A DNA stretch of 64,000 nt, taken from Alistipes sp. Its GTDB lineage: Bacteria; Bacteroidota; Bacteroidia; Bacteroidales; Rikenellaceae. Under the pieces are notes generated by a model. The model did not search any database, had not been told where the DNA came from, and worked only from the letters and a program-made list of their open reading frames with translations. Of this stretch, positions 40,134-63,160 are shown one piece after another (position 1 is the stretch's first letter; each line of letters begins with the position of its first letter). The stretch covers positions 38,173 through 102,172 of the forward strand of contig JAZORI010000058.1 of NCBI GenBank assembly GCA_045656505.1, read 5' to 3'. The position numbers were made by a program, and so were the translations under genes.

Positions 40134-43100
40134 ATGCACAAAATAGTCCAGACAGCGACACAGACTGTTCCGTTTGTGCAGCTGCAAAAAGAGTTGAAAC
40201 AGAAGGGCAACACCGTCTATCTCAATGAGTTAGTCGGAGGGGCCCTTACGTTTTATTTGGCAGCATCAGTGACAAAAAATGCTGGTCTGCATATACTTGT
40301 GGCGGAGGATCGTGATGCGGCAGCATATGCGATGAATGACCTCTATGCACTGCTTGACGAGAAGAGAGTATTGTTCTTCCCGTCTGCCTATAAACGCTCT
40401 GTACTCTACGGCCGAGAGGATGCGGAGAGTATAGTTATGCGTACAAATACGATGAATGCCATCAAGAGCCTTGCGGCGGATGACTATCTTGTTGTCTGCA
40501 CATATCCCGATGCTATAGCCGAGAAGATTGTGGCAAGTGAGGAGCTTGAACAGCGCAAGATTAGAATCTGCTGTGGTGATAGGGTAGATATTGGCGACTT
40601 GGTTGATGAACTTGAGTCTCAGGGCTTTGTGCGTGTAGATTTTGTCTATGAGCCAGGTCAGTACTCTGTCCGAGGAGGTATCGTAGATATATTTTCATAC
40701 TCTGAGAGCCGCCCATATCGCCTCGACTTTTTTGATGACGAGGTAGAGTCGCTGCGCCGTTTTGAGATTGCTAATCAACTCTCGTCCGATAAGTTGGAGA
40801 GCGTGGATATTATCGGAAATATCAACCGTGCAGAGAGCCGTAATAGCTCGTTTGCCGCGTTTGTTGGTCAGAGTGCCGCCTATTGGTTTTATGATGCTGA
40901 TTACATCCTGCGTAAGGTTGATGATATCCGCATAAAGGCGATGGAGAGTAGCGAGGAGCCTCAGTTGGTAGCTCAGCGAATGACCTCGCGTAAGGAGCTG
41001 ATGACAGACTTGGAGCAGAGTACATTGCTGCTTCTTAAGAATAACCTTACCGAACGCCCTGCGCGTACAACGGTCATCTTCCATACCCAACCACAGGCGA
41101 AATTTGGCAAAAATTACGAACGCCTCGCCGACGATATTGCATATCGTAAGGGTGAGGGGTTGAGCTGTTATATCCTCTCGGATAATCATGCGCAGATGGA
41201 GCGATTGGAGAATATTTTTCACTCTATATCGCGCCCGGATGTGAGCCTTGAGATGATGCGTCTGTTGCTGCACGAGGGTTTTGTCGATTACGATACGAAA
41301 CTCTGTCTATATACTGAGCATCAGCTATTTGACCGCTATCGACGCTATAAAATCAATGGTGAGATTAAGCGCGATGAGCAGATGACCGTGGCAGAGCTTA
41401 ACGCCCTGCGAGTTGGTGACTATGTCGTGCATATTGACCACGGAGTTGGTCGATTTGATGGCCTTGTGACCCTGCCAGACCCTATGGGTGGAAAGCCACG
41501 AGAGGTTATTAAGCTTGTTTATCGTGATGGCGATGTGCTCTTTATCAATGTTCACTCTCTGCACTGCATCTCTCGCTATAAGAGTGGTGATGGCGAGCGC
41601 CCGAAGGTGCATAAACTTGGCAGTGGCGCTTGGCAAAAACTTAAGACGGCAACAAAGAGGGCTGTCAAGGATATCTCGCGTGAGCTTATTGCCCTCTATG
41701 CAAAACGTAAGGCAAGTGAGGGTTTTGCCTTCTCGCCCGATAGTTATCTACAGCAGGCTATGGAGGCCTCTTTCCGATATGAGGAGACCCCTGATCAGCA
41801 GCGAGCAATTGAGGCAGTAAAGAGTGATATGGAGTCATCGCGCCCGATGGATAGACTCATCTGCGGAGATGTTGGTTTTGGAAAGACCGAGGTGGCTATC
41901 CGTGCAGCGTTCAAGGCGGCTGTTGATGGAAAACAGGTGGCGGTGCTTGTGCCGACAACTATTCTTGCTCTGCAGCACTACCGCTCATTTATGGAGCGAC
42001 TCAGAGATATGCCGATACGTGTGGAGTATCTCAATCGCTCAAAGAGCGCAAAGCAGACACGCCAAATTGCCGAAGATTTGGAGGCGGGAAAGATTGATAT
42101 CCTTATCGGAACGCATAAGATACTCGGTAGCGGGATAAAGTTTAGGGATTTGGGTCTGCTCATTATTGACGAAGAGCAGCGTTTTGGCGTTGCAGCAAAG
42201 GAGAAGCTGACCCATATGAGTGTCAATGTCGATACGCTGACCCTTACGGCAACACCTATTCCGCGAACATTGCAGTTCTCGCTGATGGGCTCGCGCGATT
42301 TGTCGGTTATCTCTACACCTCCACCAAATAGACAACCGATTATCACAGAGTCACATACATTCTCCGAGGAGCTGGTTAAGGATGCCATTGAGGCGGAGCT
42401 GTCGCGTGGTGGTCAGGTCTATTTTATACATAACAACGTGGAGCAACTTGAGGATATCCGTGGAATGGTCAGCCGTCTCTGCCCTAAGGCGCGTGTTGTT
42501 GCAGCACATGGTCGCATGAAGGCGAGTGATATGGAGCGACTGATTATGGATTTCATCTATGGCGAGAGTGATGTGCTTGTGGCAACGACTATCATCGAGA
42601 GCGGAGTGGATATCCCGAATGTGAATACCATCATCATCAATAATGCTGACCACTTTGGTCTGAGCAACCTGCATCAGCTGCGTGGTCGTGTGGGTCGAAG
42701 TGACCGTAAGGCGTATTGCTACCTCTTAAGTAGGCCAAATGAGCTGCTGTCGGACGATGCACGCCGTAGATTGAGGGCGATTGAGGAGTTCTCCGATTTG
42801 GGTTCGGGATTCAATATCGCTATGCAGGATCTGGATATCCGTGGCGCGGGTAATCTGTTGGGTGCCGAGCAGAGTGGATTTATTGCCGATATCGGTTTTG
42901 AGACCTACCAGAAGATTCTCAATGAGGCTATTGCTGAGTTGCGTGCCGAGGGCCTTGATGTGGCGGGATTGTCGGCAGAGGAGCAGAAGGTTGTCAGCAG
43001 AATGAGCTATGTGGATGATGTAACGGTGGAGCTTGGCGTAGAAGCCTCACTGCCAGCAGATTATGTACAGCAGCCTGCTGAGCGATTAAGACTCTATCGC

Positions 43101-43463
43101 GAGCTGGATTCGATTGTTGAAGAGTCGCTGTTGCAGCAGTTTGAGACAAGGCTTGTTGACCGCTTTGGCCGTATTCCTGACGCGGCACGACAACTGCTTG
43201 ATGTTGTGCGACTTAGATGGGTGGCAGCCGAGCTTGGAATCGAGCGTGTGAAGATTAAAAATGGACTTATGATTGTCGCTTTTGTGGGTGATGACCGCTC
43301 GCCATTCTATAAGACCGAGCAGTTTATGACCCTCCTTCGCCGCGTCACCTCGCAACCCGAGCGTTTTGTCCTCAAGCAGCGCGATACAAAACTTGCGATG
43401 ACTGTGCGAAATGTTGCTTCGGTTGCTGATGGCGTGAGAGTATTGACCGAATTGAAATCATAA
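40134..43463 (+). CDS. mfd: Transcription-repair coupling factor
   Basis: VGDYVVHIDHGVG, GDVGFGKT, DEEQRFG, TATPIPRT, QLRGRVGR. Confidence 0.97.
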   Translation: MHKIVQTATQTVPFVQLQKELKQKGNTVYLNELVGGALTFYLAASVTKNAGLHILVAEDRDAAAYAMNDLYALLDEKRVLFFPSAYKRSVLYGREDAESIVMRTNTMNAIKSLAADDYLVVCTYPDAIAEKIVASEELEQRKIRICCGDRVDIGDLVDELESQGFVRVDFVYEPGQYSVRGGIVDIFSYSESRPYRLDFFDDEVESLRRFEIANQLSSDKLESVDIIGNINRAESRNSSFAAFVGQSAAYWFYDADYILRKVDDIRIKAMESSEEPQLVAQRMTSRKELMTDLEQSTLLLLKNNLTERPARTTVIFHTQPQAKFGKNYERLADDIAYRKGEGLSCYILSDNHAQMERLENIFHSISRPDVSLEMMRLLLHEGFVDYDTKLCLYTEHQLFDRYRRYKINGEIKRDEQMTVAELNALRVGDYVVHIDHGVGRFDGLVTLPDPMGGKPREVIKLVYRDGDVLFINVHSLHCISRYKSGDGERPKVHKLGSGAWQKLKTATKRAVKDISRELIALYAKRKASEGFAFSPDSYLQQAMEASFRYEETPDQQRAIEAVKSDMESSRPMDRLICGDVGFGKTEVAIRAAFKAAVDGKQVAVLVPTTILALQHYRSFMERLRDMPIRVEYLNRSKSAKQTRQIAEDLEAGKIDILIGTHKILGSGIKFRDLGLLIIDEEQRFGVAAKEKLTHMSVNVDTLTLTATPIPRTLQFSLMGSRDLSVISTPPPNRQPIITESHTFSEELVKDAIEAELSRGGQVYFIHNNVEQLEDIRGMVSRLCPKARVVAAHGRMKASDMERLIMDFIYGESDVLVATTIIESGVDIPNVNTIIINNADHFGLSNLHQLRGRVGRSDRKAYCYLLSRPNELLSDDARRRLRAIEEFSDLGSGFNIAMQDLDIRGAGNLLGAEQSGFIADIGFETYQKILNEAIAELRAEGLDVAGLSAEEQKVVSRMSYVDDVTVELGVEASLPADYVQQPAERLRLYRELDSIVEESLLQQFETRLVDRFGRIPDAARQLLDVVRLRWVAAELGIERVKIKNGLMIVAFVGDDRSPFYKTEQFMTLLRRVTSQPERFVLKQRDTKLAMTVRNVASVADGVRVLTELKS

Positions 43464-43484
43464 ATACAAACATGAAAATCAAAC

Positions 43485-43512
43485 AGCTAATAGCTAAAAG
43501 CCAATAGCCAAC
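43485..43512 (+). repeat. Heptamer tandem run AGCYAAN x4
   Basis: AGCTAAT AGCTAAA AGCCAAT AGCCAAC; related runs at 32512-32546, 37609-37636 and 51678-51705. Confidence 0.8.
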
Positions 43513-43593
43513 GCTGCGATTAAGCCGAGAGCAGAGTCAAGCTTGCTTGAACTATGCCGAGGCGGAGCAGGGACGGGTTGCCAAAGGCAAGCC

Positions 43594-43674
43594 AACGGCA
43601 ATATAGCACAAATATACAGCGAGAGATAATGCAAACTTGTAATTTAATCATAGATACGGGCAATACTTTTCATA
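43594..43674 (+). repeat. 81-bp exact direct repeat, copy 1
   Basis: Identical to 43745-43825; contains the coaX leader and first 15 codons. Confidence 0.95.
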
Positions 43675-43688
43675 TAATCGGAGCGTAG
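43629..43688 (+). pseudogene. Truncated duplicate of the coaX 5' end (19-aa ORF)
   Basis: MQTCNLIIDTGNTFHIIGA*; first 15 aa identical to CoaX, then runs into module D and stops. Confidence 0.8.
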
Positions 43689-43734
43689 CGACTAAGCCTC
43701 CCTTTGCCAAAGGGAGGTTTGGAGGGAATGTAAA
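43678..43734 (+). repeat. Module D palindromic repeat
   Basis: TCGGAGCGTAGCGACTAAGCCTCCCTTTGCCAAAGGGAGG...ATGTAAA; homologous to 62941-62997. Confidence 0.85.
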
Positions 43735-43744
43735 GATGCAATTT

Positions 43745-43825
43745 AACGGCAATATAGCACAAATATACAGCGAGAGATAATGCAAACTTGTAATTTAATC
43801 ATAGATACGGGCAATACTTTTCATA
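43745..43825 (+). repeat. 81-bp exact direct repeat, copy 2
   Basis: Identical to 43594-43674 (offset 151); overlaps the true coaX start. Confidence 0.95.
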
Positions 43826-44535
43826 AAATTGCCGTTATAGGTATGAACAACAACATTCTGGAGGAGAGGGTAGTGCCTGAACTTACGGAGGAGGTTGTTT
43901 GTCAGATATGTAGTGCTTACGCTCCGTCGAAGGCCATTATATCATCTACTCGTGGCGATGCTCAGAGGAGTAGAGGTCTGTTAGAGGGTAAGGTGCAATA
44001 TGTTCTTTGTTTGGATAGTAAGACGCCACTGCCCATTGCGCTTGACTATAATCGAGCGACAATTGGAACAGATCGTATAGCGGCAGCAGTAGGTGCGGTA
44101 GAGATGTATGGCGCTGATAAGAGTATCCTTGTGGTGGATGCAGGTACGGCGATAACGCTCGATTTTATTGACTGCGGAGTATTTCGCGGAGGCAATATCT
44201 CTCCGGGTGTGGATATGCGACTTGAGGCGCTTAATGAGAAGACGGCGACCCTTCCGCTCTGCTCACCAAAGGCTCTTGATGCAGTTGCGCCACAGCTCGG
44301 TCATTCGACCGATGAGGCGATAGTTTTTGGCGTGATGGAGGGTGTTTTTTACGAAGTAAAAGGGTATATTGACGCTTTTGTCGAAAAAAATGCAGATTTA
44401 TTGACAATTTTTATCGGAGGAGACGCAGAATATTTTGAGAATCGAATTAAAAATGCGATATTTGCGGGTCGTAAAGTCGTCTTTTGCGGCCTTAATAGAA
44501 TTTTAGAATACAATGCAGAGAATGAAGATATATAG
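43780..44535 (+). CDS. coaX: Type III pantothenate kinase
   Basis: IIDTGNT, IGTDRIAA, VVDAGTAIT, GGNISPG, GGDA. Confidence 0.92.
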   Translation: MQTCNLIIDTGNTFHKIAVIGMNNNILEERVVPELTEEVVCQICSAYAPSKAIISSTRGDAQRSRGLLEGKVQYVLCLDSKTPLPIALDYNRATIGTDRIAAAVGAVEMYGADKSILVVDAGTAITLDFIDCGVFRGGNISPGVDMRLEALNEKTATLPLCSPKALDAVAPQLGHSTDEAIVFGVMEGVFYEVKGYIDAFVEKNADLLTIFIGGDAEYFENRIKNAIFAGRKVVFCGLNRILEYNAENEDI

Positions 44536-45913
44536 CAGAGCGTTTGTAATGGTGTTTGCCGTTACGCTTTTCAGTGTGTTTGGAACAGGTCGAGTGTCTG
44601 CTCAGAGTTCGGCAATTAACGCCTACTCACCATACACCATGTATGGTATCGGCGAGCTGGGTGTGAATGGAAATGCGATAAACCGAACAATGGGCGGAAC
44701 TGGTTTGGCTATGCGTAGCACGCAAATGGCGAGTCTGCTCAATCCTGCCGGTTATAGCGCTACTCTGCGAAATAGCTTTATCTTCGAGGTAGGCATGGAG
44801 GGTAACTTCCTCAAGAATACACAGCGCAGATACTCTTCGCTCTCAGCTTCGGACTACACTACAGCCGAGAATGCGAAGAACAGTGCCAACCTCCGCGAGA
44901 TTGCAGTTCAGTTCCCTGTTGCAAAGGGTCTTGGTTTCGGTCTGAGCCTTACACCTTATGGCAGTGTTGGTTACAAGATGAACACACTCGAGCAGAGTGA
45001 GGATATTTGGGGTACTGTCGGTGGTGTAATGTACAACTATCAGGGAGATGGAGACGTTACAGAGATTAAGGCCGGTCTTGGTTGGGAGTTTGTCCGTGGA
45101 GTATCGGTTGGTATCGCTGCAAAGTACTACTGGGGTAACATTCTGCACAACTACACAACCTCTATCTATGGCGATTATGTAGGTTCGGGCGACTTTGTAT
45201 CGACAAATGGTCTTGATGACTATGCTATCTCGAACTTCAAGTTCCAGGTGGGTCTTCAGGCAAATCTGATTGCTACAAAGAAGAGAATGCTTACTATTGG
45301 TGCTACTTATGACTACGGTGGCCCGCTCAACCCTAAGGTGGTACAGACTATCTATATCGGTGACTATGCCTCTTCAGTTGTATTCCAGGAGGATAGCCGT
45401 GGTCAGATGCGTCTGCCACATGCAGTAGGTGCAGGTATCTCATATCAGGATTCAAAGTTTGTTGCCAACTTCGACTACGAGTATCAGAATTGGGGTGGTG
45501 ACAACGCCTTCTATCAGCACGATACCTATACAGGCGTGAGTGTAAAGTATGTAAATACTCATACATATAAGTTTGGCTTTGAGTATATCCCTAACCGATT
45601 CGATGTTCGTAACTACTTCAAGCGTATCTCTTATCGTATAGGTGCTCGTTACGGTAACTACTACCAGAGCTTTGCAGATCAGCAGATTACTCAGTACTCA
45701 ATTACAGCCGGTTTCGGTTTCCCACTGCGATTTATGAGTGCGCATAGCATCAACGCAGGTATTGAGTTCTGTGGACGTGGCAACCATACATCAGTGGAGT
45801 TGCCAGGGCAGGGCAAGCGTCTGGGACTTATTCGCCAGAACTACCTCAAGGTACACCTCGGTTTCTCACTCTTCGGCGAGGACTATTGGTTTGTACGACC
45901 TAAGATTGATTAA
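44513..45913 (+). CDS. Outer-membrane beta-barrel protein (FadL/PorV-like)
   Basis: Signal peptide; SPYTMYGIG; LLNPA; alternating beta-strand pattern; aromatic C-terminus. Confidence 0.7.
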   Translation: MQRMKIYSRAFVMVFAVTLFSVFGTGRVSAQSSAINAYSPYTMYGIGELGVNGNAINRTMGGTGLAMRSTQMASLLNPAGYSATLRNSFIFEVGMEGNFLKNTQRRYSSLSASDYTTAENAKNSANLREIAVQFPVAKGLGFGLSLTPYGSVGYKMNTLEQSEDIWGTVGGVMYNYQGDGDVTEIKAGLGWEFVRGVSVGIAAKYYWGNILHNYTTSIYGDYVGSGDFVSTNGLDDYAISNFKFQVGLQANLIATKKRMLTIGATYDYGGPLNPKVVQTIYIGDYASSVVFQEDSRGQMRLPHAVGAGISYQDSKFVANFDYEYQNWGGDNAFYQHDTYTGVSVKYVNTHTYKFGFEYIPNRFDVRNYFKRISYRIGARYGNYYQSFADQQITQYSITAGFGFPLRFMSAHSINAGIEFCGRGNHTSVELPGQGKRLGLIRQNYLKVHLGFSLFGEDYWFVRPKID

Positions 45914-62877: not shown

Positions 62878-62940
62878 TTGGTGCAAGATATAGGGTAGTG
62901 CTGTACTGCGTAGCCGTGAAACCAGTGCAATTGGTGCACC

Positions 62941-62997
62941 TCGGAGCGAAGCGACTAAGCCCCCTTTTTTCAAAAGGGGGGGTGGGGGATATGTAAA
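62941..62997 (+). repeat. Module D palindromic repeat, second copy
   Basis: TCGGAGCGAAGCGACTAAGCCCCCTTTTTTCAAAAGGGGGG...ATGTAAA. Confidence 0.85.
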
Positions 62998-63065
62998 TAT
63001 AATTGTAAAGTATTAGCATCGGTAGAGTTTTCGGATTTAGGTTTGCCATCGGAGATGGCACAATA

Positions 63066-63118
63066 AAAATAGTCCTCTAAGGTCAAGCTCGCTTGAAACC
63101 GAAAGGGGACTATTTTTT
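63066..63118. terminator. Bidirectional terminator with embedded module E
   Basis: AAAAATAGTCCTCT...AGGGGACTATTTTTT; loop contains GTCAAGCTCGCTTGAA (compare 43536-43551). Confidence 0.7.
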
Positions 63119-63160
63119 ATTGAATAGCCGTAGGCTATCCTAAATTCGTAACAGCAAAGG

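Follow-up and report, generated by a model that had tools for sequence, protein, structure and literature searches.

How does the 5' end of a gene come to be duplicated over 81 bp without a single mismatch, on either side of a small hairpin-forming insert, with the gene itself left intact? This question is raised by the coaX locus in the window (the whole stretch of 64,000 nucleotides that was analysed), which derives from G000, a 2.08-Mb, 71-contig MAG of a ruminant-gut Alistipes. The features of the locus, together with a second copy of the inserted module elsewhere in the window, are as follows.

40134..43463, + strand: mfd, transcription-repair coupling factor, the upstream neighbour of coaX (ORF; Pfam TRCF, DEAD, Helicase_C and UvrB_inter)
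43482..43512, + strand: degenerate heptamer array, GCTAATA/GCCAATA (blastn matches on contigs C25, C12, C68 and C46)
43510..43598, + strand: module X, a separate dispersed repeat with two covarying hairpins (12 genome copies aligned)
43594..43678, + strand: copy 1 (A0), comprising the coaX leader and first 16 codons (sequence comparison)
43629..43688, + strand: decoy ORF of 19 aa (MQTCNLIIDTGNTFHIIGA), with its stop TAG within the 5' end of module D
about 43679..43738, + strand: module D in its short form, consisting of CGGAGCGTAGCGACTAAGCC, a hairpin (43694-43720) and GGTTTGGAGGGAATGTAAAGATG (family copies and fold)
43744..43753, + strand: L arm (y), TAACGGCAAT, the reverse complement of coaX codons 17-19
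43745..43829, + strand: copy 2 (A1), leader and first 16 codons running into intact coaX
43828..43837, + strand: R arm, ATTGCCGTTA, coaX codons 17-19, which pairs with the L arm
43780..44535, + strand: coaX, type III pantothenate kinase, intact (PF03309, E 6e-31)
62890..63000, + strand: second D of the window, long form (GTACTGCGTAGCC..GCACC fused to its 5' side), without a flanking direct repeat

The duplication described in the sequence-only reading was confirmed to the nucleotide, positions 43594-43674 being identical to 43745-43825. Exact extension fails on both sides of these 81 bp; if one mismatch is allowed (T at 43675, A at 43826) the match grows to 85 bp and ends at 43678 and 43829, and a repeat search scores the duplication as 92 nt at 96%. 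Tandem Repeats Finder called no array at coaX, since the array amounts to only 1.5 units. The two copies are separated by 70 nt and module D, about 60 nt long, lies within them, as had been proposed; the same holds for the 19-residue decoy arising from copy 1 and the intact coaX arising from copy 2. The insertion point of D is the 5' edge of the R arm, after position 43829 in copy 2, which corresponds to 43678 in copy 1. The hairpin of D has a 13-14-bp stem with a predicted dG of -26.8 kcal/mol (z -4.3). On the left, the 3' end of module X (..GCCAACGG) shares 5 nt with the start of copy 1, and because the edge of the 81-bp identity coincides with this end, it was probably set by X as a later junction rather than being the original boundary of the duplication.

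Several features of the surroundings were recorded in passing. Module X, a dispersed repeat of 85-90 nt, has two hairpins with stems that covary from copy to copy; it is also present in G000 at C67:34-122, C17:34-122, C52:8129-8217, C45:67046-67109 and C46:5783-5874, and several contigs end in it. It is found nested in the loop of D at C52:9780 of G000 and in the slyD-linked D of locus L221, and an X-like module occupies the loop of the coaX-linked D of G209. The heptamer array precedes the upstream coaX copy in the relatives G109, G096, G094 and G014 as well, and occurs on other contigs. A Bacteroidota-type promoter (TTTG, about 20 nt, TAnnTTTG) lies before the coaX leader in several relatives (L016/L045 at about 1460-1500, L014 at about 1140-1180) and is missing upstream of coaX in G000, where the end of mfd is only about 20 nt from the repeats. 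Directly downstream, 44513-45913 encodes a 466-aa protein that overlaps the end of coaX, has no Pfam match and is conserved in all 22 relatives described below.

Other alleles of the same species were sought in public assemblies encoding the exact CoaX protein of the window, and five further contigs from other samples were obtained. Two of them (L315 and L317) match the window sequence except that precisely one 151-bp unit is absent, leaving X-A-coaX without D, so that the 151-bp deletion allele foreseen in the sequence-only reading does exist at the level of assemblies. L316 contains three units, with two private substitutions in its first A. L314, whose leader differs and which lacks the inverted arm, represents a second haplotype, and in L313 this second haplotype is joined within the repeat to D-y-A1; from its sequence L313 looks like a recombinant between the haplotypes. 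Alleles of one, two and three units in a single species are thus associated with an identical CoaX protein, on assembly-level evidence in which short-read assembly may have mis-resolved the unit number. In every one of these alleles coaX is intact and has the same start.

Comparison of orthologous loci, which had also been proposed, covered a clade of 22 Alistipes species whose coaX aligns over its length, with a tree built from CoaX and the downstream protein. In 11 of them coaX is preceded by an array that repeats about every 151 bp (G311 and G219; G250 and G296; G034, G000, G209, G014, G307, G282 and G096), and remnants are present in two more. The number of units per species is one, two or three, with three units of period 151 in G034. 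The A-D-A state occurs in both deep branches of the tree and the single-copy species are scattered; in G361, the closest relative of G000, only a stump of copy 1 is left, which runs into the hairpin of D. More distant Alistipes have neither leader, D nor L arm, the ATG of coaX adjoining or overlapping the stop of mfd, and the entire arrangement consequently arose inside the clade. Within a species the 46-nt leaders of the two copies share 74-100% identity; between species the mean is 57%. D itself is 84-96% identical between species, more than the leader (mean 90% for coaX-linked copies), and selection on D for some function could account for this. The pairing of the L and R arms tracks codons 17-19, being GAT/ATC in four species, GGAA/TTCC in G216 and also AAT/ATT. 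An origin of this stem as an ancient native RNA structure was rejected, since the L arm is missing from the outgroups and from the type-2 alleles described next. G003, a candidate for an empty ancestral site, was likewise rejected: it keeps y without D, and the outgroups have no leader at all.

Five single-copy species begin with a distinct, type-2 head (..CCAATGGCGAATTTAAT) that is otherwise present only as the upstream copy of arrays, and their sequences look like products of recombination between two copies. One of them, G094, is almost identical to its sister G096, which has an array (A'-D-A), and would, judging by its sequence, be exactly the recombinant expected between copies of the G096 type. 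In type-2 alleles the last heptamer unit provides the coaX start codon (CCAATGG). The leader of the left copy is of type 2 in several species and differs from that of the right copy, which simple target duplication does not predict; recombination between haplotypes would explain it, although this is not proven, and such foreign leaders probably reached the left copies by unequal recombination.

Judged from G000 alone, the coaX-linked D appears unique. Besides coaX, D is found at about 62943 and at five further sites in this genome, and all of these copies are long-form or truncated and none has flanking repeats. The sequence-only reading had placed an unflanked copy at 62941; a copy is indeed there and is unflanked, but it belongs to a different, long form, in which an extra module (..GTACTGCGTAGCC..GCACC) is joined to the 5' side of D and which shows flanking repeats in none of its copies. 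That the remaining copies are all of this kind accounts for the lack of a second flanked D in G000, where a genome-wide scan for spaced repeats yielded protein repeats and module arrays and no second gene-start duplication. Other spaced exact direct repeats in G000 (59-91 bp, periods 144-324), at C65:6345-6760, C39:69434-69730, C44:4144-4350 and C21:18840-19210, may in some cases be arrays of other modules. A palindrome about 110 nt long (ggatttagg..cctaaattcg) adjoins the long-form D of the window at 63040-63150, and a close copy of it lies upstream of coaX in G003 (L003, about 1040-1160).

The family is larger outside G000. Nine relatives carry 3-25 copies of D per genome, and an exact-pattern scan of Alistipes MAGs found at least 116 stretches and supplied at least 80 further D loci. 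The 88 distinct copies analysed comprise 30 of the short form, 14 of the long form and 44 consisting of the hairpin and 3' part only. Both ends of D are sharp across many unrelated contexts. D has no terminal inverted repeats: its 5' end (CGGAGCG..) is not complementary to its 3' end (..GGAATGTAAATATG), and the only inverted repeat in 43675-43744 is the central hairpin. Rfam gave chance-level matches only over 43300-44000 (E at least 0.67). Two candidate features of the module were dropped. The T in GCGTAGCG, which provides the TAG of the decoy, was considered as a mark of single origin or of selection and discarded because copies of D away from coaX in G219, G250, G296 and G307 share it. An apparent generic 3' extension (TTTCATAATTCC) proved to consist of locus-specific inverted start-codon copies that share AATTATGAA by chance.

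Flanking repeats were evaluated by aligning the 130 nt to the left of each D with the 150 nt to its right, flanks of different copies being paired as the null (mean score 7.8, 95th percentile 11, 99th percentile 22). Among the matches listed, 20 of the 30 short-form copies, at about 10 loci, score 26-91, and all 14 long-form copies score 12 or less. The scan for flanked copies of D put forward in the sequence-only reading thus found none beyond coaX in G000 itself and many in related Alistipes. The flanked copies display a common three-part arrangement. The 30-120 nt preceding the target point are present as a direct copy (A0) to the left of D; directly 3' of D is a 10-17-nt reverse-complement copy (y) spanning the target point; and after y comes a second direct copy (A1), which passes without a break into the undisturbed DNA downstream. 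In 20 of the 30 short-form copies listed, the 3' flank of D and the target point share an exact inverted repeat of at least 10 nt, the 95th percentile of the null being 8 nt. In 17 of them the distance between the R arm and position +19 of the 3' motif, a position 6 nt short of the 3' end of D, is 89-99 nt. A strict ruler for the length of the duplication was rejected, as the spacing is mostly about 90 nt yet values of 40, 118 or 130 nt occur in other copies.

Short-form D was found at about nine gene ends besides that of coaX, among them those of slyD, asd, a MazG-like gene, lon, rplT, fba and a GGGtGRT gene, and the loci carrying the signature include the following.

lon: direct copy of 41 nt
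fba: two D copies, period 206
rplT: two D copies, period 156
slyD: two D copies, period 157
MazG-like gene, asd, lipoprotein gene and GGGtGRT gene (Pfam names): further short-form D loci with the signature
L076 (no neighbouring gene identified) and L090/L099 (tandem D array): further loci with the signature

The arrangement is polar throughout. In nearly all arrays the A copies outnumber the D copies by one and the leftmost element is A, the exception being G307 with a D stump first; the rightmost A continues into the intact gene, so that the intact copy is always on the 3' side of D. Genes on the same strand as D are hit at the start codon or, in the case of coaX, at codon 16, and genes on the opposite strand (fba and the GGGtGRT gene) 15-19 codons before the stop. 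The sequence of y is specific to the locus and corresponds to codons 1-5 of slyD, codons 1-4 of asd and codons 17-19 of coaX; at the GGGtGRT gene it is TAACAACCCAATGG, to be compared with CCATT-GGGTTGTTA, and at the lipoprotein gene TTTCTTCATAG, to be compared with CTAT-GAAGAAA. The leftmost slyD copy, which begins about 8 nt past the promoter -7 box, lacks y, and the slyD, asd and lon sites of G000 itself have neither D nor y, which indicates that y is made by the insertion event and is not a pre-existing feature of the target. At coaX and rplT, y is already part of the left copy. At the 3' end of the GGGtGRT gene different lineages have D at two different target points, and an allele without D is also known; insertion of D is therefore recurrent. 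'Empty' sites may be revertants formed by recombination between copies and do not prove the pre-insertion state.

Two further observations concern these loci. The region 3' of the GGGtGRT gene (L299-L312) is a mosaic between species only 5% apart, with terminator hairpins exchanged or compensated and two independent D events. Downstream of rplT, a 113-nt palindrome (aagcagttaaatagcc..ggctatttaactgctt) abuts the stop of the L20 gene (L122, L160, L155); the geometry of its left arm is exactly that of the inverted junction copy of D, and long palindromes abutting gene ends in Rikenellaceae may on this ground be products of the same process.

The explanation that we consider best, and hold with moderate confidence, is that short-form D was inserted by DNA synthesis with template switching, that the resulting array was then remodelled by unequal recombination, and that the decoy and hairpin are by-products. 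Short-form D would have entered coaX at codon 16/17 in the ancestor of the 22-species clade, installed by synthesis during repair or replication, with no classical transposase at work. From the target point, a 3' end would copy D, snap back on the same-sense strand a few bases ahead to copy 10-17 nt as y, and finally re-anneal 40-120 nt behind, most often about 70-90 nt, so that recopying of the target would create the direct duplication. Unequal homologous recombination between the direct copies may subsequently have expanded, contracted and homogenised the array, whose present form would be a tandem state with a period of about 151 bp and a unit of D, a few bases, y, the leader and codons 1-16. 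The perfect 81-bp identity in the window would then reflect a recent round of recombination, its left edge cut by X. We infer these steps from their end products only. The y within the left copies at coaX and rplT needs extra steps, either expansion of the array followed by loss of its first unit or a pre-existing hairpin; as for the spacing of about 70-90 nt, it is our speculation that it stems from a single-strand segment wrapped by SSB. Insertions within the first or last 20 or so codons would survive because one intact gene is left, and the array would be tolerated without acting as a switch. The suggestion in the sequence-only reading that the duplication is a footprint of how the repeat spreads, in a manner that preserves the invaded gene, is broadly supported by the 20 flanked short-form copies and by the intact gene on the 3' side of D; the inverted junction copy and the age and copy-number dynamics of the coaX array had not been noticed there.

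The direct repeats could in principle also be the work of a transposase making very long and variable staggered cuts, in the manner of IS1634/IS1549, with D as the non-autonomous passenger of an undetected element, and the sharp ends of D in many unrelated contexts speak for this. A staggered cut alone, however, makes no inverted junction copy; D lacks terminal inverted repeats; and D always has the same polarity with respect to the duplicated side. Among eight D-bearing genomes there were no matches to IS1634-family transposases (NF033559) and none to Y1/RAYT transposases (PF01797; control genomes were positive), and reverse transcriptase is absent from G000, G209 and G296, so that RAYT, IS1634 transposase and reverse transcriptase were all rejected as candidate enzymes, being absent or not tracking D. 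MAGs tend to lose IS copies, and since those searched are incomplete and usually without IS copies, the missing transposase is weak evidence. With these points taken together we regard a transposase origin as unlikely.

Ordinary tandem duplication would have D landing upstream of the coaX leader, slippage of a 151-bp segment and loss of the leftmost D. In its favour, G307 retains a 3' remnant of D before the first copy (..TTGGCGAAAATGTCAATATGCAATTT-A-D-A) and G155 a decayed 3' end of D upstream of its single copy; arrays do expand, as in G034 and L316; and hairpins promote slippage and flap ligation. Against this, the excess of one A over D with A leftmost is seen in nearly all arrays at about 10 loci, the left copy repeatedly abuts the sharp 5' end of D and the right unit its 3' end, which slippage would not produce, and the inverted junction copy is left unexplained. 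We consider this course of events quite unlikely.

A selected regulatory device, in which the decoy, the D hairpin and the L/R stem control coaX and the downstream operon and copy number tunes expression, is in our estimation very unlikely. The architecture has been kept in half of the clade, with remnants in two further species, D is more conserved than the leader, and the L/R stem covaries as set out above; the y sequences are complementary to the start-codon region at slyD, asd and the MazG-like gene and could mask it, and in G000 the decoy's stop codon precedes the hairpin. However, nine of the 22 species, as well as alleles of the same species, have lost D, y or both and still have a normal coaX. 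The decoy peptide is no more than the N-terminus of CoaX and does not behave as a conserved leader: in relatives its stop position varies or it is mutated, truncated or absent, with a mutated core in G250, truncation in G361, an earlier stop in G096 and readthrough of the hairpin in G296. The hairpin in the window is followed only by GGTTTGG, without a T-run, and there is no Rfam match; a sigma-70/terminator scan, which is of little use for Bacteroidota promoters, gave no terminator-like site in 43350-43950, and the fold predicts no alternative (antiterminator) pairing. Moreover, D has the same architecture at the 3' ends of opposite-strand genes, where the logic of a leader does not apply. 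The leader-peptide attenuator advanced in the sequence-only reading did not hold up against these findings, and neither did its on/off variant: each allele keeps an intact coaX, and the array is for this reason not an on/off switch. A role of the coaX array as attenuator or switch is not supported.

Finally, a collapsed or mis-traversed loop in metagenome assembly, as might be suspected in a 71-contig MAG in which several contigs end at D or X modules and in which unit number is hard to resolve with an assembly k-mer below 81, is unlikely in the extreme, because the contig could only form from reads that cross the two junctions of D (its 5' end with codon 16, its 3' end with the leader), and the same architecture recurs, with species-specific substitutions in both copies, in independent assemblies of 11 other species and in other samples of this one, so that only the unit number could be mis-resolved.

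Returning to insertion by synthesis and template switching, a more general proposal would be that short-form D spreads by a transposase-independent copy-and-paste process that uses repair or replication synthesis, rebuilding the invaded gene ends and laying a new long-range hairpin over the target; we offer this tentatively, as a possibility that we think more doubtful than the account given for coaX. If it were true, the many long palindromes next to gene ends in Rikenellaceae might have arisen through the same synthesis-based process. Small hairpin repeats fill the intergenic regions of bacteria, and to our knowledge nobody knows how most of these families move; the reproducible three-part scar, in which the element is accompanied by a long direct and a short inverted copy, narrows down the possible mechanism and opens it to testing, and alleles with one, two and three units within a species are already available in public assemblies. 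Because the scar regenerates the gene end, insertion even into essential genes such as coaX, asd and fba can be harmless. Leaders, decoy ORFs and stems masking a start codon can arise in one step, as starting points from which new regulation may evolve. Annotators should take short duplicated gene starts or ends beside hairpin repeats in Bacteroidota MAGs as real and not as assembly errors.

In a literature search we could not find this three-part insertion signature described among small bacterial repeats. RPEs can sit within coding regions without killing the gene, and D resembles MITEs, REP/BIME, ERIC, Correia, RUP and RPE elements in being short, multicopy, hairpin-forming, mostly intergenic and modular or mosaic. 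The target duplications of MITEs and small palindromic repeats are fixed at a few bp, whereas D is accompanied by direct repeats of 30-120 bp and an inverted junction copy of 10-17 nt. MITEs are defined by a length below 500 bp, terminal inverted repeats and flanking direct repeats (PMC10969869); D is likewise shorter than 500 bp, multicopy and dispersed, but its direct repeats of 30-120 nt are variable in length rather than short and fixed. Long and variable direct target repeats (8-514 bp) are described among prokaryotic elements only for IS1634/IS1549, with no accepted mechanism (PMC2266710). D shares with these elements the long, variable-length direct repeats at insertion sites, but they are autonomous DDE elements of 1.5-2 kb with terminal repeats, whereas D is about 60 nt long and without such repeats, and the inverted junction copy is a feature of D for which no counterpart has been reported in IS1634/IS1549.

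Three further systems are comparable in part. As in tandem-repeat contingency loci, the unit number of the coaX array (here one, two or three) varies between strains via recombination, but a change of unit number at coaX leaves the reading frame and the gene as they were, and no on/off effect is evident. Integrative elements at gene ends, such as tRNA-gene islands, leave the invaded gene intact and have a copy of its end flanking the insert. Those islands bring the replacement end in attP and use a recombinase, whereas at D the duplicate comes from the local target, with its species-specific leader, and the insert encodes nothing. The scar of D also resembles the templated insertions and duplication-inversion junctions that synthesis-dependent end joining or fork template switching leaves in eukaryotes ('snap-back' insertions of polymerase theta, FoSTeS/MMBIR), which combine a direct duplication of the flank, a short reverse-complement copy at the junction and a foreign insert between them. 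These eukaryotic templated insertions are sporadic scars with random inserts, whereas the scars described here contain the same 60-nt element each time, with sharp ends, a fixed polarity and a spacing of about 70-90 nt.
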